Below are positions 3,328-47,072 of a stretch of DNA of 52,506 nucleotides, piece by piece. The notes below the pieces were generated by a model that was given only the letters and a program-made list of their open reading frames with translations, made no database searches and was not told the DNA's origin. The position numbers and the translations under genes were made by a program. Origin of the DNA: Neolecta irregularis DAH-3 (lineage: Eukaryota); NCBI GenBank assembly GCA_001929475.1, contig LXFE01000143.1, forward strand, positions 1 to 52,506, in the 5' to 3' direction. Position 1 is the stretch's first letter. Every line of letters starts with the position of its first letter.

Positions 3328-3868
3328 CTTCCTAGTCTCTACAAACTTCTCTATTCGACGAATATAAGCAAGATTGCAACAAGGGAGTTGTCTATACACC
3401 TGGGCAGGCAGCGAGATCTTTTGGATCAGCGCATCTCATGTTGCATACTCGCTTTGAGAAAACTTATTTACTATTGCAATGGTTTATTCCACATTTTCTG
3501 ATTACCATGAGAATTCGACTTTTAGATTGAATATCATTGGAATATGATAAATCCATCGTGGATCTTTTACCTTATCAACGTGCGACATTGCCTCAGTGTA
3601 TAACATGTCGATGCTCTCGCGTTCACGACCTTGACATTGCCCAACTAATGACAGACAGGTCTAGCCTACCTGAAAATAATTATTACATCAGTTATCTATT
3701 TCATTCACGTTTGACATAAAATTGAGCAATCTGTTTGTAGAATCTTAAATTTCTGCTTGCGCATCTGATCTTAATAAAAACGCCATATCGCCATGCCGAT
3801 TCTCCAGTGTTTCACGGGACAATCTTCCGTTGCTGACCTTAAACTACAACCACCCCTTGACGACTATT

Positions 3869-5434
3869 ATGCCTACTCACCAGGACGACTATGATCATGA
3901 AAACACAGTCTTCAAGATTTCACAATTGAGAAAAAGTAGATTCCTGCACGACGAACTCGCTAAATTTAGGTTGCACTATTTGTAGAGCCCAGAAACTCAA
4001 GGTCTGATATATTTGAGATTATGTTCACATTAGTGCGATGAAACGAAACCTGTATGCGATCATTGCACAAAGGCTGGTACCGAGTGCATATATCAACATT
4101 TTGATCTTCGTTGGAATGAAAATGCCACATTAGATAATTCTGGAAGATTGTCAGTTTGGACGGATAGAATCTCTAACTTTACGCACGAAGAATGTGAATT
4201 GTCACCATCTAGCAGTGACACAGAGTCCTCTATGAGTCGAAAAAATGTAGAGCATACAGACAAGCCCTACGTTACTAAAATCCATGCATTCTTTCGCCAG
4301 TCAGTTGAAAGTCTTCAAATACGTCGCCCTGAACCTCTTCCAGATCTTTTACTGGAAAGTTCAATAAATCGGGAAATTTTCCAGTACTACTTGAGCTACC
4401 ATACTCGTCTTCTCGTTGCAAGAGACGATTCAAGTAATCCGTTCAGAACGATAATAGCACCATTAGCATACAACTCCACTCTTCTCCTAGGTACAATCTT
4501 GGCTGTATCTGCCATCCACCGCCAAAAATCCGGAAACGCTCATCCAAAGTGGATTCATATATATTCTCTTCTTGATGATATCTTTCGTGACCTCGGAGCT
4601 ACTTTAGAAACTGTTGAGGGGCAAAGAGAACCAGGTACCCTTGCCACCCTGTTAATGCTCTCACACATGTCAACGTCAATGTATCCCTCTTCACCCCCTT
4701 TCACACCCCATTTTGAAGCTGCGAAAATGATTATTGAACATCAAGGTGGACCTAAGAAATTACTATTAGAACATCCTTTTCTGGTCGAATGGTTTGCATT
4801 GTTTGATATTATGCAAACGATGATGGGAGAGTCTTCAGGACTTGCATGGAATGGATTATATTGGTTGACCCCTCAAACTCTCCCGCGAATAAATCGTTTA
4901 TTCGGCTTCTCAGGATCTTTAGCAACTCATTTTCAACAAATCAATATTCTTCAAACACGTCTACTTGCAATTCGACAATTGTCTGAACCAGGCTTTAAAT
5001 TTTCAAATAGTGATCTAGATATTAAAACCCTTCTAGACAAAATCACGACGGGAAGAGTTGTCGAAGATTTTGGTGACCATGATTTTGTTATTTCAAGTGA
5101 AGTCTTTCGAGTCGTGGTGTTACTAAAGTACTATCGAGTCTTACTTGAACAGCCTGCTGATTCATGGAAAATTGAAAGTCTTGTTGGACGTCTCGAAGGT
5201 CTGATTGGCAGGATCTTTGATTCAAAGGACATCCTTCCTGCATATGCAATTCGTATGATGTGGCCACTGTTAGTAGTATCTGCCGAAACACTAGATAGTA
5301 GTCAAGTCCAACTTTTAGCAAAAGTGAAAACGTTGAGATCATTAGGAATAGGGAATTTGGGAGATGAAAATGCGCCTATTGGTGATATCTGGAGACTCGG
5401 GTTAGACCAGAGCCAGGTGTTCTCGTTTGTTTAA
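3869..5434 (+). CDS. Zn(II)2Cys6 fungal transcription factor with C-terminal fungal TF domain; 2 introns (3936-3969, 4002-4033)
   Basis: Spliced N-terminus gives CTICRAQKLKCDETKPVCDHCTKAGTEC, joined in frame to ORF 4148-5434. Confidence 0.85.
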
Positions 5435-5506
5435 TATAGCATTTTCAACGAAGAAATAGTCCCAGGTGGATCTAAATCTATGTACAACAGGCCCGCTATT
5501 GTACTC

Positions 5507-7995
5507 TTAGCCAGTCATTACTCTCTCCAGTTTTGAAGCCCGTAGTTCTTTTAGCCGTGCCTCCATTTCAGGTACAGTGCGAAGATTGATTTCTAAGTTT
5601 TGTTTTTCCTCTTCTAATGCAAGTCGTTTTTCAACGTCCAATTTACAAAACACATACCCTCCATGTCCATCGTACTACCAGTTAAAATAACTCTAGAGGG
5701 CGAAATACTTGTAAAATATAATTGTGATATTTCCATAGACTTTGGCGATGACTTACACTGAGAAGCGTGATTCCCAGTTTAGCAGCATGAGTGTACAACG
5801 TGGTCTCGATATCCATCGACACCGCACTTGTACATTCATCAAGAATAGCATATTTTGGTTTATGATAAAACAAACGGGCCATCGCAATCAAATATATCAG
5901 TATTTGCAAACAAAGATGTATACCCTCTGTTTATCGCCTCCGGAGAGAGCCGAGCCCCATTCTCGTTCAGTGTCCCAACCGCCCTCTCGATCTACGATTC
6001 CTGAAATTTGTAATAATTCGAGAATGTGCATGAGATCATCGTCTGTGATTCCCCGGGCGGTCATTTCAAGACGGGTGTGTGGGTATATTACTTGATCGCG
6101 GAGGGTTCCAAGACACAAGTATGGTTTTTGGGGGATGTAAAAGATATCTTTTGAGTTGGGTTTACGTACCGTGCCGCCGTAAATAGGCCAGAGACCGCCT
6201 AGTATACGGAATAAACTACTTTTTCCTGATCCATTCGGTCCAGTAATGAGTGTATGTTGTCCAGGTTTCACATAAAAATTCAATTTTCGAACGAGTATGT
6301 CCCCGTTTGGTGAGATGATGGGGACGTCATCAAACACGATATCTCGACTGTCAATCACTGTCCCTCGGGATGCTAAAAGTTTACGGTCGGCATTGGTGAC
6401 TAGCTGTTTCTGGAAGTGATCCTTGGAGATATCGTCCATGGTTTCCAGCAATTCTGAAACACGAAGGGTGTATCCAGCAAGTTCGGCGATGTCTTTGTAA
6501 GAGTACATCAACCGCCCGATCGCATCTGAACTGGACAAGAGTAGTCGTCTATTTGTGACAAAACCTGCAATTAGAATTCTTTCAGTCAGGACGGGAATTA
6601 CCTTCAGTCCGACCACCAAGGCTCTTGTTTCCGATACCGGGAACCTTGAAGAACACGGGAACAGCGCACATGACGAGGCCTAGTGCACCCCAAAGATATT
6701 TGATCACGCTCAGGAAGTTAAATTTAGCTCTTCAGGGGAAAACTTACAAATCCTCCATCATTCCATGCCACAACCTTTGACGGAGAATTCTATTGATATG
6801 TTTTATCAATGCAAAGTATCCTCGATCCAGTGCCGTCCGTTCAATTTCATATCCCTGATAGAACGCAATTTCTTCAGAGTAATCGATCAATCGGGTATGC
6901 GTAAATCTGTACTCTCCTTCCAATCTCGCTTCTTCAGCAACATATTTCCCAAAACTAGGATTAAAAAAGGAGTTTTTATTAATAAACCATACGGTGGAGT
7001 TAGTGCTTTCATTACATTTCCACTGAGCTGAATAAGACAAGTCAGTGCAAACAGAGCCTCTGAGCCGACATTTCTAGAGAGTTTCCAATTATAGATAGTC
7101 ATATCGAGAACGGGTTTAGCGAGATTTGAAAAAATCTCCGCCAATGCATTGCTAAATTTGGCAACATCGACAGTGATCACCCTGCCGTGTCAGCCATAGA
7201 ATTCCACAGCGAGCTTACTGATCAGCGTTTTTGATGCGGTCGTCCAGATTAGCCAAAGCATAAAAGGTCATCTTCGAGAGGTATTGTTTGTGAATATGGC
7301 TAGTGAGCCGAGTTCTGTAAGAAATTGCGAGTTTGCATTGAAGAAAGGATATCTAGGTAGGCGTCAATGGAAATAGCAAGTCGGTCAAACCATGGAATTG
7401 GTGTAAGTTGCAGGAACTAAGTATTAAGATCGATTTCATAGCAAAAATATAGAAGTACCGGCGACTATCATCCACCAAAGTAGAGAAATCAAAAATTCTT
7501 TTCCTTTTCCTTTAACCTGGGGATAAGCTTGGATAGGAGATCTCTTTTACAAGCGCAGAAACAATGTGTCCATCTAATTCCGCAACGTATAAAGACACAA
7601 GGGTCCGGAAGACAAGAAATGCAGAGTACGAAGTAAGAAGGCCAAATTCTTTTGTTCGGATGCCAGGAACGACGATCTTTAGCAGTTTGTGCATTCGCTC
7701 AAAGAACGCGCGATTGATCTGGCATTAGAAATTTGTGTTTTTAAGCGCAAACCTCCGCTCCCTGCTTTCTACGACCATGCTTTGGTTTCTGGTCGGCTAC
7801 TGCAAGTCTGAGGCGGTTTATCCGATTATCAGCAAGGAGAAAAGTTGGGGCAGATACTACTGAGAGAATAAGAGTAATCCATGTTGCGCGAGTAATTAGT
7901 GTTCGGTGGAGAAGATATTTTTGAGCAATAGTTCCGAGAACTGAGCGGATATGTTTGTCTTCAAAACTATTACGCAAAGTCGACTGGCTCGACAT
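5507..7995 (-). CDS. PXA2: Peroxisomal ABCD half-transporter (Pxa2/PMP70-like), 11 introns
   Basis: Walker [10 protein letters not shown], signature [35 protein letters not shown]-like [22 protein letters not shown]; two introns need non-AG acceptors. Confidence 0.85.
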
Positions 7996-8627
7996 TATGG
8001 ATGAGTGTGGCGGTGTGGATGTGGGCCATCACAAGCTCGGCCTAACAAAGAATGCAATTGTTTCATCCATACACAAACTATATAATTTGATCTAGAATAT
8101 ACTCTAGAAGGATATGAGGGAACAATACATGTAGGGATTCTGGAAAACCCTTCTGGCCCAGCCCAGGGCAGCAACTGAGACACCAAGTTGGCTCCCCGAC
8201 CCAAATACCCTATGGAATTTGTGTGATGGCGTGATGAGGAGCGATGTTCAGTATCATTAACTATATAAGGAAACTCTATCGGGACTGGCCAGGTAAACTT
8301 ATCACTGTACTTGATGGTATTAGTTACTTCTGTTAAGACTCACGCCCCATATGAGTATAACTGCTCTAGTGTAGATACAGACTTTAGGTTGTCGCGTATT
8401 CAGACTGGGTACTCCTATTAGATTGCTACTGTGAAAAGCCTACCCGTTAAGCGGGGTAGGCTCTCTTTGAATAGTAAATGTACACTACTTGTAAGGATAT
8501 ACTAAAGGTTCCGTGATTTGCATTACTTCTCCGGATGGGTCGTTCAAACACCACACCTGTACTTCTCCGCGATTCCGTAATCCGTCCGCCCCGACTGGGT
8601 TTTTTGCTATCTGTTCTGTGTGCTTTC

Positions 8628-10858: not shown

Positions 10859-11895
10859 ATGTTAGCGTCCGCCCGTGACTTCAAGTATATTCTGTTGTTT
10901 CTTCGTATCTAATTTAAAAGTGCTGTTCGCAAAGCTATCCGAGATATTCTTCCGCAAAAAGGATACGACGATGGAAGTGCAGGACCGGTTCTCGTTCGTC
11001 TCGCATGGCATTGTAGTGGTACATACGACAACGAATCAAATACGGGTGGTTCAAATGGAGCCACCATGCGCTTCGCAATCGAAGCAAACGATCCGGCAAA
11101 TGCAGGTCTCCAGCAAGCCCGCGACTTTCTTGAACCAGTTAAAATGAAGTTTCCGTGGATTAGTTATGGCGATCTGTGGACTTTATCTGTACTATTTTTA
11201 TTTATGAGATATACTGAGACCAGGGCGTTGAGGCTATCAAAGCTATGGGCGGGCCAGATGTTCCTTGGCAAGGAGGTCGCTTGGACCATACCGACGATTC
11301 AGACGTCCCTGCGAATGGAAGATTACCAGATGGGGCCAAAGGAGAGGACCACTTGAGAAATATTTTCTATCGAATGGGGTTTAATGACCAAGAAATCGTT
11401 GCGTTGAGTGGTGCACATAATCTGGGGCATCGCCTATTCTAATCTCCATAAACTGATAAGTCAGACGATGTCATGCAGATCGATCTGGTTTCGAAGGGCC
11501 ATGGGTAAATAATCCGACTCGATTCTCAAATACCTAGTTCAACCTCTTTTAAAATTCAACTAATATCCAGTTTTAGATTGATGTTGAATGAAGATTGGAA
11601 ACTTGGACATAATTCAGTTGGAGTCCAGCAGTTTAGTGATTCTCGTAAACGCTTGATGATGTTGCCTTCTGATATGGCTCTTGTTCGTGATCCTCAGTTC
11701 AGGAAATGGGTAGAGCTATATGCCCAAAATCGGGAATTATTTTTCAAGGACTTCGCAAACGCATTTGGAAAATTAGTTGAACTTGGAATACAACGGGATA
11801 GCCAAGGGAATGTCATGAAAAAGGGATTGCAAAAGGGTAATGTCAAGGTCGACATTTCAGGGCCGGAAAGAGATGTTTCTAAAAGCAAGTTATAG
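10859..11895 (+). CDS. Class I heme peroxidase (cytochrome c peroxidase-like) with PTS1 SKL; 4 introns
   Basis: [39 protein letters not shown]-terminus SKL; introns 10885-10920, 11189-11223, 11427-11464 (GC-AG), 11537-11570. Confidence 0.9.
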
Positions 11896-22462: not shown

Positions 22463-23052
<590 letters not shown>

Positions 23053-23179: not shown

Positions 23180-24679
23180 TTATATCATTTTGAAACATGC
23201 CTTCCACATCCCTCCTGCAAGACCATTCCCTATAGAAAGTTTCTCGGCCAAAATACCAGATAAGTTCGCATCAGGCTGTGTGTGAAATAAACCAGCCTGA
23301 ATATACAACTCAAGTACTGCATGTGCTTCAACATCAGTGTATGTTTCGACAGGTATCAATGTAGTCCCATCAATACTGTTGGTCACCCTTTCATCAAAAT
23401 GCTCAAAAGGTGAAGCTTCTTCAGCACCAATAATATGGTTGAGAGTAATATTTTTCTTTGGTTTAGAGGATGTCGTTGCAATAACCGCGCCATTTTTCAG
23501 ATGTCAGAAAGATCTAAAAGAAATGCACTTACTAGCTTCTTGGAACCATTGAGATAGGAGATAAACCATGATGCTAGAGCGAAATCATGTGGATGAATAG
23601 ATTTCAAATCTGCGGTAAAATACTTCGAGGGCACTGACAGAGCGGAGAAATTATCCAAAGTCAAGAGAACACTCGGCCGGTTCTCTTGATTCAGCTGTTC
23701 CATTAATGCCTGTAGAACTTCATAAGAACAGAGAGGATCGCGAATACCGCAACCGATTAATCGAGTAAGGTCATCTCCGAGTTGAATTGTCTTGTTTTGT
23801 CCAAAACTATACGACCGCGTGCATTTAATCTATGCATCAGGATCGAGTGTGGAATTTGGAATACTCCGCCCAAGGCATCCAAATTGGCATCTTTCGTTCG
23901 TTCAAGGAGAGCCGCAGTAAACTGGTGTTGATGATATAACCCGGAATTTTTGTCCAGGGAATAACTTGTTGTATTGTCCACCAATTCAAGCCCTGTAATA
24001 ATGTTCCAATTAACAGGGAAAAAGAGGAATACCTCTAGGAACTGCAATAACTATCCAGTCGTTCATTAGAGCATGTACTTGCGCTTGCAGAAGTAAAACG
24101 CTTTTTCCTGAGCCAGCTGGCCCCGTCAATAAACAGCGTCTCATTTCACTGGAAGCCTTTCCATCCAATCTTTGGCACAAGTCAATCGTTTCATTGCGGA
24201 TCACAGGAGAAAATTGGTAAAAGTATTGAAAGCCTTGACAGGGATGAAACACTTGCAGAGTAGATAGCTTTGCAGTGATCGCAGCAGAAGAAGCCAGACA
24301 GGAACCGCAGAGACTCGAATTTGTCAAAGAATCTTTCAATAACTCCTCGATATCGAGATTCTTTGGCCGTGCTGAGAAAGAACTGGATATTGGATCACAG
24401 CCGAGAGTTGCTTTCAGTAATGACGTCGTCTGAAAGGCCATATCGACTGTTGTCTTGACTTTATTTCCACCGCTGCCCTTGTCTTTCTTTTTAGAGGGTC
24501 CGTATCCCGGCTTGCTTGCTTTTTTCTTTTCTGGATCCAGTCAGTATGAACGCAGTGTAGGCGGTTTGATTACTTGAAGCAACAGCCGGTCCTTTGGCAC
24601 AAACTCGACTTGCCGAGAGAGCTCTGGTGTATAGTTTCAGACTTTTTGAAGCCTGGAGCGATATGCGCCGCAGTTTCAT
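23180..24679 (-). CDS. RSM23: Mitochondrial small-subunit ribosomal protein mS29 (DAP3/Rsm23); 4 introns
   Basis: P-loop LTGPAGSGKSVLLLQ, WIVIAVP, VLLTLDNFS, IHPHDFALASWF; last intron needs a CTG acceptor. Confidence 0.85.
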
Positions 24680-37780: not shown

Positions 37781-39189
37781 ATGGATCCGGTATTATATAG
37801 AATTCCCATACGGAAAGGACTAAGAGGCAGGATGTTAATGAAGGAGCGTTTAGCGCCTATTTTCCCCTCCCCTACCGAGTACTTGGAACTCTATTGCTGG
37901 GTACACCATCAAGTTAGTGCTGCTCCTGAAAACAGGAATCTGGGCATGGGCATCGAATATCCACGTTCTCGAGCTGTCGAATATAGACACAGCCTCGTTG
38001 TTGTATGGGCGAGTAAAGATCTTGCATACCTCCGATCGCAACATGTTTATGCCTGCGTATAGAATTGCTACTGTGTTATCGATAATGGGCGTTTCCAGTC
38101 TAGTTATGTTTTGGGCCTTTACCTCAGGAGATGTTATCGCCGCCCGTGGATGGGATATCCTGCCGCTGTCCTGCTTCGTGTTCTTGATTTGCCTTTTGAT
38201 ATGCCCTTTGAATATTCTGTACCGGATGGAGAGATTCAAATTTCTACAGTATTTTCACAATCTGATTTCCGTGTGACGTCTATAGGACATTCAAACGGGT
38301 GATCATTGGGGGGATTGATCTTGATAACCGGCTCGGGGATGTTATATTGGCTGATATCCTCACCTCTTACTCCAGAGTATTTGGAGATGTCTTTGTGATT
38401 ATCTGCATGTCATTCAGTGGCATTTCAACCACGTCACATCCAGATCGTGGATGTGCAGGTACTTCTTGGCTGGTACCTTGCTTCATCAGGTACTTAACTT
38501 GAGAATTACACTTGACTGCTAGTCTGCCGTCGTTCATTCGACTCCGCCAATGCTTGAAAGAGTATCAAAGTTCGGATGGTAATCTCACACATGTCATGAA
38601 CGCCTTAAAATACGCGTCAGCCTTTCCAGTTATACTATTTTCTGCCTTGCAAAAAAGTGATATATCTTCTAGTGACTCAGAGAGAAACTCTTTTGGGGAA
38701 CTGACTCTCTTCCGTCTATGGCAGGATCTTTTGTTAACAAATGTACTGACATCAAAGGGTCCTCTTCGTTGTTATAAACTCATTCTATTCATTCTATTGG
38801 GACGTTATCAAAGACTGGGATCTTACGTTATTGACTAAACCAGCTTCAAGCGGTTCCCCAGAGACATGGGGTCTGAGAAAACATCTTTGTTTCAAGAAGG
38901 ATTACTATTACATTGTGATAATTCTTGATTTCTTATTGAGGCAAGGTAACCCAAATATTGCATTACTAAACACTGTAGAATGACATGGAGTGTCAAGCTA
39001 AGCCCTCATCTTCATCAGCTGCAAGAAGCCGAAAGAGGCATACTACTATTTGAAGTGCTTGAGGTCTTCCGCCGATGGCTATGGGTTTTCTTCAGAACAG
39101 AAGCAGAATGGGTGAGGCGGAACCATAAATATGGTTTAGGAATGCAGGGAAATCCAGACATTAATCTATCCAAGGACTTTGAAGATTAG
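37781..39189 (+). CDS. ERD1: EXS-family protein Erd1; 6 introns (two GC-AG)
   Basis: FPLPYR, GDVILADILTSY, RLRQCL, NALKYASAFPVI, EVFRRWLWVFFRTEAEW. Confidence 0.88.
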
Positions 39190-40146: not shown

Positions 40147-42558
40147 CTATACAACTACTTCTTCGGTCTCGTCAATCAATTCTTCAACTATCATCTCGAT
40201 GACTTCATCTTTGCTGTCTTCCTTTTGTTCTCCGAAAAGTCCAAGGTCACGAAGTTCAGCTTCCTTTTGAGCCCTAAAGGCTCGCCAGTCTGCCAACATC
40301 TTTCTGTGTTGTTCAACAAGCTCTGTGTTGGCCATGCTGGCTGCCTGAGCGTCTTCTTCATCAAAAATACGACTATAATCTCTGAGATTCTTGCGGACCT
40401 TCTTCTGGGCTTCCTTGCTGAGGAGGGATTGAGGTCGCGGCCGCCATAAGAACTGTTTAAAGCGTTCGAAAGGTTGTTCGAAAAGTAATGTACCTCGAAA
40501 ATCCCACAACTTGAATCCATTTTCCATCTGAATGTAAGCAATAATAACGACACATCACCATACTGCATGTATCCAATTGCTGGAACTGGTTGCAATATAT
40601 CGTCCAGAAGGATCCCATTCGATATCGGTTATTCCGAAATGTTCTCCCTGATTCATCAGAGTAAGGTTTGCGTTATGCTCCTTCTCAGACTCGCGCTTCT
40701 CTCCGTCGAGATCGCAGTCCCAGAACTCTAAACCGTAGACAGTCGGACAGCCAAGGGTAGCAACAAGAACAAATCGGCCTATAGGTGACCAGAAAATACT
40801 GTTACAAGTCTTTTTGTTGTCAATGGATCCTGAATAGTCAGTGAGACCTAAGAATGTCAAATACGAATGCACTTGAAGGCTCCAGCAGCTCCCTTGCCTT
40901 TCTCGAGGGCGTAGAAGGACAGAATAGTCCGTCCAGCTACACCTTGAGAGCCAAAATTTGGATCATTCGATGTAATGAGAACAAATCGATCCCCTTTAGG
41001 TTCCCAGGCAAAAGCGATAGCGTCTTCTTTCAACTCTACAACTTCAACAGGTATATTTTTCTCTGTGAGGCGGAAAATCTCGAGATTGGAAAAAGTTTTC
41101 TTCTTAGTTTTCGTATGTCGACCGACATTGACACATAAGAACTGGCCTGCTGACTGCCAATGAAATTTGCACTATGCATCAGCTTGACCATTATTTCAGT
41201 CATGATACGTTAGACACTTGAAATAGATTCTTAGTCCGCACGACTTCTTTATTCGGAACAGTCATTAAAGAGACTCTAGCAGGCTGGTTTCCAACTTCTG
41301 GAGTCCAATAAGCTAATATTTGTTGACCAGTCTTGGCCGCTTCCTGAGTTTCCGCGGGAATCCACTCGAAATCAACGATACTTTCGATTTTGATACTCTT
41401 TCGATCAAGAAGGCCCATTCCTGGAGCTTCATAAATCGATAATTGCTGACCGGGAGTGACTCGAGCAAAGTATTTCTCCTCTATGCTCCATTTCATTAAT
41501 GGCCAGGAGATCTTTTGAGCAACCCCCTTGGAGACCTCATGAGCAGGAGTTGGGAATGACCTTAGAATCGCACCAGTTTGAACATCCCAGATGAAAAGTT
41601 GTTTCCCCTCATCATCTTCTGAGAATGGTAGGTTAGCACGAGCAGGATGATTCGCAGGCGGCAGACGAAGAGGCTCATCAGACCAGGTGACAACATATCG
41701 CTCTTTGGGGCTAAAGTCTACAAGGTTGATGCCAGGATGGGCAAATCTGTGGATCCGTTTCCACGAAGGACCACCCCAAATCTGGAGACCTTGAGAATGG
41801 ATTGAAACAAGAAACGTCCCAAGAGGCGACCACTGAATAAATCGTTCTGTCCAGTTCTATCGTTAATGGCAATCAAATTCCATACATACAGGTCGATTGA
41901 CGACTGATTCAGGACTTTTGTTTTTGCGGTTCCAAGCTACAAGAACATCATCACCCTTGTACATCGCAAACTGATCTCGACCCTGGTAATCTGCGAGCCA
42001 ACTTCTCAAGTGCTCCTAAAGAGGCGTTAGCAGTAGCAGACAGAAAAGACTTGAATGCACCTGCTCAAAATATGGTTCTTCCTGAGGCGGTTCAAACTCA
42101 TCTGGAACATTTGCATATTTCTCGACATCGGTAAAGAGGTTGACCTTGAGAGTATGCCTTTTATCAAGTGGGTGGTCATTCAGTTCTTGAATGGCTCTGT
42201 TAGCCTGTTGAGGATTTTCGTACTCGAGGAAAAGAAATCTGAAGAATAATCAGAGAAAGTGACACGCATTGTGAAAGTACCCTTGGGACATCTGTTTACT
42301 ATTTACTTCTTCCATGGGCATGAAGGGTCCGCTTGTCTTAATAGTTCCTCGTTTGCCAAACAGTTTCGATACAAGTTTGAGCAAGGCATTCTTTTTCTCT
42401 TCGCCAACAATTGGCAGACCGTCAACGACAATCCACGCATCAAACCCCTCTTCAAAAGGGACTTGAAACCGCTCTTCGAGCTCTGAGAAGTCGAGTTGAT
42501 CATCGACGAAATCATCTTCGTCGTTGTGACCACTTAGTTTGGCGTTTTCTGTAACCAT
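40147..42558 (-). CDS. PRT1: Translation initiation factor eIF3 subunit b; 6 introns
   Basis: [40 protein letters not shown]. Confidence 0.93.
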
Positions 42559-43215: not shown

Positions 43216-44331
43216 ATGTCCTCTGTAAAGTCTCACGCAGTAGAACCCCTCGGATTCGGCATTACGCCAGTGAATGGACATGTTCAGGCTGATTGGAAGG
43301 ACGGAAAATGGGGTCAACTTTATGTGGTCAAAGACCCGTATCTCAAAATCCATGGATTTGCACCTTGTCTGAACTATGGCCAGGTAGACAATCTCAGATG
43401 CATATATTCAACTGACCTCAGCAATGCTTTGAAGGACTCAAGGCGTTTCGCCAGAAAGATGGCCGTGTTCGGGTATGCCGACCGGCGGACAACTGTGCTC
43501 GCATGCAGCAATCCGCCGATATGATTTCTATCCCGGCCATCCCAGAAAACATGTTCTTGCAGGCCATCGAAATGCTCATTAAAGAAAACATCGAATTCTG
43601 CCCGCCATACGGTCACGGTGAAAGTTGCTACATTCGCCCGTTGTTGCTAGGCACAGAGCCCTGCCTCAAACTCGATGTATCAGAGGAATTTACTTTTGTT
43701 GTACTGCTCAATCCAGTGGGCCTGTTTTATCCGCCATTTGCATTCGATGCGCTCGTGGTCGAGGATTTCGACCGAAGTATGTATTCAGGTTGCTGCCAAC
43801 CAATCTGATATTCAAGGCGCACCCCTCGGTACGGGAGCTGCCAAACTTGGAGGAAACTATCCTGTTATGCTTGGCATTGCAGCAGCCGCAAAGGCCAAGG
43901 GCTATGGAATCACTTTACATCTAGACTCCAAGACTCGAACCTATATCGACGAATTCAGTACTTCGAATTTCCTCGCGATCAAAAAGGGCCCAGGAGACTC
44001 AAAAGTCTTGATCGTTCCCGAGTCAAAGTCTATTCTGAAATCGATCACAACCAAGTCTCTGATTCAGATTGCAAAATCTTTTGGGTGGAGTGTCGAATCA
44101 CGACTCGTTCCATGGGACGAAGTCCATGCGTTTGACGAAGTTGCTGCCTGTGGGACAGCAGTCGTCATCACACACGTCAAAAGCATCACCAAGGGAGGTG
44201 AGAAGATCAATATTGGTGATGGGACTCTTGGAAGAGGTTTTGCGGAACTACACGCGCGATATACGGCAATTCAGCAAGGAGATTATGAGGATAGCTTTGG
44301 TTTTATGTGGCCAAAAGAAGGCATTCCCTAA
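43216..44331 (+). CDS. Branched-chain amino-acid aminotransferase (class IV PLP); 2 introns
   Basis: LNYGQQCFEGLKAFR, YIRPLL, AKLGGNY, IDEFSTSNF, ILKSIT, ACGTAVVI. Confidence 0.9.
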
Positions 44332-45104: not shown

Positions 45105-47072
45105 TCAAATTCTACTTTTGATTGGTTTATCGGCACTGATTTGATTACGAAGAACTCGTCTCAAGATTTTTCCAGATGGGCTTTTGGGAATGACTTGAAC
45201 AAACTTGATACCTCCTCGTAGCCGTTTATGAGGAGCAACTCGTTCGTTCATGAAGGCGACGAGCTCCTTTACTAAATTATCTGAAGCCGATACACCTGGA
45301 GCTGGGACGATGAAGGCTAACGGAAGTTCAGAAGCAACTGAACTCGAATATACTCCGACTACACCGGCATCACCCACCTTTGGATGTGAAAGGAGCAATC
45401 CTTCCAGTTCTGCGGGTGCAACCTGGAATCTAAAAGTAGGCAAGTGAAAATAATAAAGCCGTACCCTTTATATTTAATCAATTCTTTGATTCGATCTGTG
45501 ATGTAGTAATTGCCATGCGTATCGACACGACCAACATCTCCAGTTTTGAAGAATCCGTCTTTTGTAAAAGAACGCGAATTGGCTTCAGGATTGTTGAGAT
45601 ACCCTATAGATCGATTAATAGAGCTAATTCGAACAAAATACCAAGCATGACGTTTGGGCCTCTGAGCCACAATTCACCTTCTTTTCCCGCAGGAACTTCT
45701 GACACGAGTTAGACAATTGCAACTCGCTAGCACATGCCATCCCCATCTTCATTCACAAACTTTGCTTCGATATTGGGGAAAAGAACACCGATAGAACCTG
45801 GAATTAGCCTTCGCGTGTATAGCATAGTTACCGTATACACGCCAACCGTTTACTCCATCCCACTTCTGGGCGTGAGTCGTAGGCGAGGTCTCAGTAAGAC
45901 CATATCCTAGTCATAGGTACACTCCGCCAAGATAAATGTTGGTACCTTGCTTCACTGGTATTCCTAATCGTTCATGGGCTTCCAAAACCAGTTCCTTGGT
46001 CAATGGCGCGGCGCCGCTGTTAATCATTCTCAATGATGAGAGATCATAATTCTTGATCGAAGGATCCTTTGCAAGTAGTAATACAATCGGTGGCACGATA
46101 TGTGCATAAGTCACTAGATCATAAGTGTGTTTTCTTACACTAGACTTACCTTTATATTTTTGCACAGCTTTGCAAAATAGAGCCAATTCGAACCTTTGAA
46201 GGACGACAAGTCCAATTCCTTGATAAATTCCGACATGAGCCAGAGTTGTCAGTCCACTGGAAATTTAGCGATTTCTTGTGTATCCAAACATATACTATAT
46301 ATGGAAAAGAGGCAGACAAGCCATATATCGATCTTTCACTGTCGTATTATGCTCGTCTACTCTAATGGTTTGTAGTGTATTCGCAATTATATTACGGTGG
46401 CTTAACATGACGCCCTTTGGGAGACCTAGGATTATCAATTGAAATAGGCAGGGGCACCCATACCAGTCGTCCCAGAACTAAAGGCCAAGAAGGCAACATC
46501 TCGGGTGGGATCAATTTTATCCTTGGGATAATTTGCCCGTCGCGAAGTCCATAGGTTTTTCCATGGCTCAAAATCTTCAACTTTTTTGTCACCGAATAAG
46601 ATAATTCGATCCTTGGGGATCCCAACCTTCCTTGCTGCTTCAGTAACAACAGACAATAGTTGAGGAAGCGCAATAATAGCTTTTGCATTAGAGCTCACAA
46701 GCTGGTGAACAAGCTCGCCGACTTGATATGCTGGATTAGATGGAGTAACTTGAATATCAAAGAAATCTTTGAATTTTTGGAAGAACCTATGCCTGCGGCG
46801 AAATGAACACCCCAGGCAACAACAGTATAATCATACTGATTTGGGCTAAAGATACAAAATACGTCGTTCTTCTTCCAATTCCAACGATCTTGAAGACCTG
46901 CGCCGAACCGCTGGGAAGCTTCTCGTACTTGACCAAATGTCAAGTATTTTCCCGAATGCGCATCGAACAGCACAGGGTGATTTTCACCAAAATCCGGTGA
47001 TCTGTTGAAGAGAAAAGATGGGATATCCGTATTGGGGATGTCGATATCTTCAAATTTCGATTTCAGGGGCAT
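45105..47072 (-). CDS. 4-coumarate/phenylacetyl-CoA ligase-like acyl-CoA synthetase with PTS1-like SRI; about 9 introns
   Basis: [65 protein letters not shown]. Confidence 0.9.

Follow-up and report, generated by a model that had tools for sequence, protein, structure and literature searches.

A short intron ending in TG within the nucleotide-binding domain of an ABCD-type transporter gene of Neolecta irregularis

Results

A 35-nt intron with TG at its 3' end

A gene of Neolecta irregularis encoding an ABCD/Pxa2-type half transporter is interrupted by a 35-nt segment, intron 10 (positions 5923 down to 5889, minus strand, of the window, by which we mean the whole 52,506-nt stretch of DNA analysed here), which is very probably a genuine, constitutively removed U2-type intron with a TG 3' end. 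A transcript-like contig lacks exactly these 35 nt, and their removal restores a colinear and complete nucleotide-binding domain. Aligners and gene finders take it as a rule that a U2-type intron ends in AG. In the wild-type fungus studied here, the most highly conserved region of an ABC transporter is spliced at a sole TG site, and similar sites recur within 52 kb.

The segment separates LSGGDKQR from IAMARLF and reads GTATAC...CTGATATATTTG on the minus strand from 5923 to 5889, in a context composed of ...GATAAACAGAGG (upstream exon), GTATACATC...ACTGATATATTTG (intron) and ATTGCGATGGCC (downstream exon). Its 5' splice site, GTATAC (5918..5923), is comparable with the ten other donors of the gene (GTAAGT, GTATGG, GTATTT and others). 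A branch-like CTGAT motif is found at 5896..5900; its A at 5897, the putative branch point, lies 8 nt before the 3' end. The terminal TG occupies 5890-5889, the base at -2 being a T. A scripted census found no AG within the 35 nt, and the next AG ends 62 nt downstream, so that TG is the sole 3' splice site. An AG-free run of 35 nt is unremarkable by chance, and the weight of the argument rests on the exact excision in the transcript-like contig. The original prediction had called a GT-TG segment without any AG at this place, with a CTGAT motif and a stop codon inside it; coordinates and letters match exactly, and the stop is a TGA at 5897-5899 that overlaps the motif. This TGA is in frame with the upstream exon, and the open reading frame (5897-6679) would end eight codons past GGDKQR if the segment were left unspliced. 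The boundary can be slid by one base (GG..TT) with an identical mRNA, and we chose GT..TG, which gives the donor GTATAC, similar to those of the other introns in the gene. Of the features expected of a U2-type intron, exact absence from the transcript, a GT donor hexamer and a CTRAY motif are all present, and only the 3' AG is missing.

Transcript-like and DNA contigs over the gene

The excision was observed in a contig of 3861 nt (depth 116), assembled from a sequencing run (X2), which aligns to the gene with 0 mismatches and skips all eleven of its short introns. This contig joins 5924 to 5888, omitting exactly 35 nt whose plus-strand ends, CA..AC, correspond to GT..TG on the minus strand. 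Nine of the eleven skips have plus-strand ends CT..AC, that is, GT..AG on the gene strand. These nine minus-strand introns are found at 7719..7752 (34 nt), 7517..7550 (34 nt; contig cut +2, placed with the orthologue alignment), 7417..7458 (42 nt), 7353..7390 (38 nt), 7182..7218 (37 nt; contig cut +1, again with the orthologue alignment), 6955..6992 (38 nt), 6709..6747 (39 nt), 6565..6601 (37 nt; contig cut +2) and 5675..5708 (34 nt). The run is typed only by a guess ('DNA?'), its organism label differs from that of the DNA run described below, and no run recorded as RNA is listed; because every predicted intron of the gene has been removed, we take the contig to be cDNA-like whatever its label. 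The transcript evidence thus consists of one assembled contig from one run, and contigs of this kind drop minor isoforms and give no isoform ratios.

The genomic letters were compared with a DNA contig from a second run (X1; record 1, 4469 nt, word depth 428), which shows 0 other letters over 5450-7302 and has T at -2. The original prediction would have fallen with an A at this position, and T is read in both the window and X1. Both odd introns of the gene are covered by X1 with 0 differences and a word depth >400. X1 is possibly the source of the window itself, so its agreement is not independent and excludes an assembly slip only, not an allele difference between specimens. Since a spliced contig cannot display intron bases, the T at -2 is taken from the window and X1, and the RNA donor, if it was another individual, could carry AG there. 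The exons of X2 and of the window are identical over all aligned pieces.

Around 7283-7362 of the window, short X1 variant contigs of low depth (49-61 nt, 1-2 other letters, depth 9-17) coincide with a local bump in X1 depth (774 vs ~420), a pattern suggesting that this part of exon and intron either has a minor allele or contains a short repeated word.

The spliced product is a complete ABCD-type half transporter

The coding region (5507..7995, minus strand; ATG at 7995, stop at 5507-5509) comprises 12 exons and yields 694 aa when spliced. A homology search with the exon upstream of intron 10 retrieved a public protein of Neolecta irregularis DAH-3 that is 100% identical to it (P0001, named ATP-binding cassette sub-family D member 2), together with hundreds of fungal proteins named Pxa2 or ABCD, at 64-70% identity over the nucleotide-binding domain. 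Successive exons match the Pfam family ABC_membrane_2 (PF06472) at profile positions 1-47, 120-185 and 177-249, and then ABC_tran (PF00005) at 2-120; this order is the ABCD architecture and is also that of the precomputed domains of P0001. The product resembles human ABCD1-3 and the Pxa1-Pxa2 half transporters in having PF06472 and PF00005 and is colinear with human ABCD1 over residues 386-672, and once correctly spliced there is nothing unusual about it. Its 80 N-terminal residues are poorly conserved, as they are in the orthologues. The original prediction had called the transporter peroxisomal, as would be predicted from membership of the family (PF06472 plus PF00005); by orthology, the protein would be expected in the peroxisomal membrane and to take part in acyl-CoA import.

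The exon upstream of intron 10 (5924..6564, minus strand) runs from the Walker A motif to the ABC signature, ends in ...LSGGDKQR and corresponds to PF00005 profile positions 2-120 and to residues 386-612 of human ABCD1. The downstream exon (5709..5888; 180 nt, 60 aa) begins with IAMARLFYH..., contains the Walker B motif and the H-loop, ends in NYILQ and corresponds to ABCD1 residues 613-672; it is present in the X2 contig, with joints 5924^5888 and 5709^5674. When the two are joined, the product shows no gap at the junction (...LSGGDKQR followed by IAMARLFYH...) against 11/11 orthologues, so that the ABC signature and the following helix, which the original prediction had expected to be restored, are indeed continuous. 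The flanking exons abut at residues 612 and 613 of the solved human ABCD1 (7rr9_A), and the same adjacency is repeated in other ABCD1 constructs (620 and 621 in 7shn_A, 630 and 631 in 7x07_A, 656 and 657 in 7vwc_A). From this adjacency in the solved proteins and the orthologues we conclude that the protein family requires the removal of exactly 35 nt: only with the GT..TG splice are Walker A, signature, Walker B and H-loop complete and colinear with solved ABCD proteins.

A metagenome scan, in which 80 loci were kept, contained only four ABCD relatives (L001-L004), all four of them uninterrupted at the intron 10 junction. They look intron-less or transcript-derived, and as such are uninformative about the position of the intron in fungal relatives.

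Two further non-AG introns in the window

The original prediction had overlooked a GT..GG intron in the same gene and a third non-AG intron in a neighbouring gene. The former is intron 1 of the ABCD gene (7822..7857, minus strand, 36 nt), skipped by the X2 contig with plus-strand ends CC..AC and with 0 letters shared at the joint; a CTGAT motif lies 7 nt from its 3' end. It is in frame, free of stops and equivalent to 12 codons, which are absent from 10/11 orthologues, the remaining one having 3 residues there.

The third, a putative one, lies in the gene for mS29/DAP3 (Rsm23), where a Pfam profile and two orthologues point to a 35-nt GT..TG intron at 23498..23532 on the minus strand, with the letters GTAAGT...CTGACATCTG and a perfect GTAAGT donor. 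The DAP3 Pfam profile is covered from 104 to 204 before this junction, the last of the gene, and from 203 to 309 after it, and among the ORF pairs described below this is the one for which GT..TG was the only frame-consistent solution. In an exhaustive search, the alignments of both orthologues (P0126 and P0121) start at residue 2 of the next DAP3 exon. The only alternative ending in AG, of 77 nt, was rejected; with it, 14 residues matched by the Pfam profile and by both orthologues are lost, and against P0126 it scores 108 bits with 2 gaps, as compared with 127 bits and 1 gap for the TG model. The representative search with the DAP3 exon gave 7 matches, of which P0121 and P0126 alone cover the start of the exon; the other 5, short repeated stretches in unrelated-looking long proteins, were left out. 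A search with the last DAP3 exon for longer proteins found none, and one against the PDB gave no match.

Intron pattern across the window

To place these introns in context, 27 introns were resolved in the window, 11 from the X2 contig and 16 from profiles, motifs or orthologues: 22 are GT-AG, 2 GT-TG, 1 GT-GG (hence 3 GT-BG) and 2 GC-AG. Their lengths are 31-42 nt, and in 19 a strict CTRAY-type motif precedes the 3' end by 6-11 nt. The three non-AG introns (ABCD 10, ABCD 1 and DAP3) measure 35, 36 and 35 nt, with branch-motif distances of 8, 7 and 6 nt, so that neither in length nor in CTGAY distance do they depart from the GT-AG introns (31-42 nt; 6-11 nt). All three have a GT donor and end in pyrimidine-B-G (TTG, CGG and CTG, respectively), the terminal G being retained; the next base is an A in each. 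Within the usual 6-11 nt reach of the branch-like motif no AG is present in any of the three, the next one ending 62, 14 and 42 nt beyond the site used, and in the two ABCD introns splicing at that AG instead would disrupt either the reading frame or the protein. With a small sample, from a window picked because of intron 10 itself, the proportion of non-AG introns (11%) is not a genome estimate.

The junctions were sought in two ways. Among 16 ORF pairs that matched the same Pfam family at consecutive profile coordinates, 11 had a plausible GT-AG intron of 31-40 nt and 1, in the EXS gene, a GC-AG intron at 38941-38978, 1 was ambiguous, 2 were unresolved and 1 could be joined by GT..TG only. 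A scan for strong donors gave 89 sites, 52 with an AG solution; among the remainder only the DAP3 intron was convincing, and candidates inside long ORFs (e.g. 46933-46968) cannot be judged without RNA. A generic ORF-joining scan was dropped as non-discriminating (83 hits for AG vs 26-81 for other dinucleotides). One further GT..TG candidate (3982-4015, plus strand), with the same tail as the intron at 5889-5923, proved false, the real intron there being a GT-AG one at 4002-4033.

Other junctions of the window deserve mention. Likely GC-AG introns of 38 nt, for which no GT donor fits, are found on the plus strand in a cytochrome-c-peroxidase-like gene (11427-11464, exon end ...GAHNLG) and in an EXS/Erd1-like gene (38941-38978, ...DFLLR then MTWSVKLS). 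A third junction of the EXS gene (38721-38757, plus strand) can be read as a 37-nt GC-AG or a 25-nt GT-AG intron, the latter shorter than any resolved intron. At two Pfam-anchored junctions, in an eIF3b-like gene (40815-40959, minus strand) and in a class IV aminotransferase gene (43703-43792, plus strand), no single short intron fits, and these may contain hidden small exons or further odd introns.

Consequences for the public gene models

The public models miss all three non-AG introns, and both affected genes in the window are wrong. In P0001 (646 aa), the donor at 5923 is paired with the AG at 5675, so that the 60-residue exon with Walker B and H-loop is omitted, and the 36-nt GT..GG intron is retained as 12 coding codons. 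The model of the second gene (P0128, 37S ribosomal protein S23/mS29, 354 aa; window 23183-24540, minus strand) reads into the GT..TG intron and ends at its TGA, without ~105 C-terminal residues that align with orthologues. Annotation by GT-AG alone has thus left the ABCD protein devoid of Walker B and cut the mitoribosomal mS29 short, errors that are inherited by comparisons of gene content and intron evolution built on it.

Alternative explanations

We considered whether the T at -2 might be a mistake of sequencing or assembly, or a mutation private to the sequenced individual, in what is really an ordinary GT-AG intron. The spliced contig shows no intron bases and X1 may be the window's own data, which leaves room for such an error, but the X1 re-assembly has 0 differences at a word depth of 428 over 5450-7302, the exons of X2 and the window agree, and with two more introns in 52 kb that end without AG, independent errors would not strike the -2 base three times; we regard this explanation as very improbable. 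We give just as little credence to the public model, in which the donor at 5923 is spliced to the AG at 5675 so that a 249-nt intron takes in the 180-nt exon, the TG junction then being minor or aberrant. P0001 is annotated in this way and the model obeys GT-AG, and contigs cannot quantify isoforms; against it, the sole X2 contig over the gene includes the exon, the product would be left without Walker B and H-loop, which are kept in 11/11 orthologues and in all solved ABCD chains, and an intron of 249 nt would be about six times as long as any of the 27 resolved. That the segment is instead a mere insertion in a dead gene is suggested by the unspliced frame, which stops after 8 codons, and it is scarcely credible for a gene that is transcribed and precisely spliced, with intact motifs, 64-70% identity to its fungal orthologues over the nucleotide-binding domain and no frameshift seen elsewhere in its coding region. 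The original prediction had named an unspliced transcript or a pseudogene as grounds for giving it up, and the transcript-like contig is spliced.

An artefact of reverse transcription, template switching or de Bruijn assembly might also delete 35 nt from what is, after all, an assembled contig. The letters shared at the joints of the two odd introns are 1 and 0 nt, a microhomology too small for template switching, the deletion restores both the frame and a residue-by-residue colinearity with ABCD1, and donor, branch motif and length of the segment are typical of the other introns of the gene; such an artefact is as hard to believe as the dead gene. Slightly less remote, and still highly improbable, is a U12-type intron removed by the minor spliceosome, a class that tolerates odd terminal dinucleotides. 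The U12 consensus is rigid, with a donor RTATCCTT and a branch sequence TCCTTAAC, and two of the three non-AG donors begin with GTAT (GTATAC and GTATCT) and so recall it faintly. By eye, however, the donors GTATAC, GTATCT and GTAAGT and the CTGAY motifs do not match it, the donor of the DAP3 intron, GTAAGT, is of the textbook U2 kind, and the branch-like motifs are CTRAY, as in the GT-AG introns. To our knowledge, the minor spliceosome has been lost from Ascomycota. An Rfam search of the 52,506-nt window found no family and no snRNA, a result without bearing on the genome outside it. A U2-type intron ending in TG, presumably removed by the major spliceosome, is thus the reading that we retain.

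Comparison with known non-AG splice sites

In human U2-dependent introns, TG has been described as an alternative 3' splice site, only beside an AG, in the accessible part of the report of Szafranski et al. (2007, PMC2374985). Compared with the human sites as presented there, the Neolecta intron shares the GT..TG ends, the U2-type signals and the terminal G, but differs in having no AG inside, the next one ending 62 nt downstream, and in that its TG junction is the form found in the sole transcript contig and is required for a functional protein. It is thus no tandem TG-AG acceptor of the human type, in which an AG lies within a few nucleotides; X2 contains the TG form only, ratios being unreadable from contigs.

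A closer parallel is provided by Saccharomyces cerevisiae lacking Prp18. According to the accessible part of a preprint (bioRxiv 10.1101/2023.01.12.523824), prp18-delta cells use 'BG' sites (UUG, CUG, UGG), preferentially <=10 nt from the branch point, and Prp18 is called a ruler that imposes a minimum distance; the use of such sites implies that splicing at them is chemically within reach of the major spliceosome. The same text notes that junctions of this kind are misplaced by the aligner STAR. As far as that text goes, the Neolecta sites belong to the same class (UUG, CUG, UGG/CGG-like, all ending in G), and the distance from branch to 3' end is very short in both (7-10 nt in yeast, 6-8 nt in Neolecta). 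The yeast sites are described there as low-level errors, unmasked by the mutant and by inactivation of NMD and competing with annotated AG sites, whereas those of Neolecta appear to be wild-type, sole and located in conserved coding sequence.

For annotated fungal introns, the part of a survey available to us gives 98.715% GT-AG, 1.009% GC-AG and 0.257% minor non-canonical; the GT-BG introns of Neolecta fall in the last class, and the frequencies observed here (3/27 GT-BG, 2/27 GC-AG) come from a small and biased sample. A term search of that survey returned no occurrence of GT-TG or GT-GG. In fission yeast, the available portion of a report lists GT-TG among rare novel junctions judged possibly aberrant. 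Our search of the literature on Neolecta (intron, splice site, Prp18) found no report of non-AG introns, and the words intron, splice and splicing are absent from the main text of the Neolecta genome paper, the supplements of which might hold intron statistics. Judged by these sources in the parts accessible to us, the class of the Neolecta sites is known, and their form, in which TG or GG is the sole and constitutive site within conserved coding sequence, is new.

A proposed distance-based mechanism

Genetic and structural work in yeast has described an interaction between the terminal G and the first G of the intron, and a contact of the A at -2 with the branch A. On this basis, the likely mechanism would be that a short tether between branch and 3' end lets only one or two nucleotides enter the catalytic centre after branching. 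The 3' site would then be set mainly by its distance from the branch and by the pairing of the terminal G with the intron's first G, and as the A at -2 would not be strictly required, a pyrimidine-B-G trinucleotide such as TTG, CGG or CTG could serve as the only 3' splice site.

We consider it possible, and would not go so far as to call it probable, that Neolecta irregularis has a relaxed 3' code throughout its genome, in which the branch A lies 6-9 nt from the end and the major spliceosome acts as a ruler that needs only a terminal G and accepts pyrimidine-B-G ends. Several per cent of its introns of ~30-40 nt would then end in TG, GG or CG as the sole site, and the fungus would be a natural counterpart of prp18-delta yeast, possibly through changes in Prp18, Slu7 or Prp8. 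If this were true, many public gene models would be corrupted. As a natural system, Neolecta lends itself to the question of how far the spacing between branch and 3' site can replace the AG signal.

Other features of the window

Upstream of the ABCD start codon, at a distance of 32 nt, an out-of-frame ATG (8027-8029, minus strand) opens an upstream ORF of ~20 codons; the X2 contig ends at 8025. At the other end of the gene, positions 1-1689 of the X2 contig (window ~3700-5450) extend past 5450 into a convergent gene for a Zn2Cys6 transcription factor (4034-5431, plus strand), and the two transcripts, which apparently overlap or meet at their 3' ends, were merged by the assembler. Finally, six overlapping ORFs of 77-123 aa are found on both strands at 22582-22997, one of them with a match to a collagen-repeat Pfam family (E = 2e-08), and the region resembles low-complexity or repeat sequence more than a normal gene.
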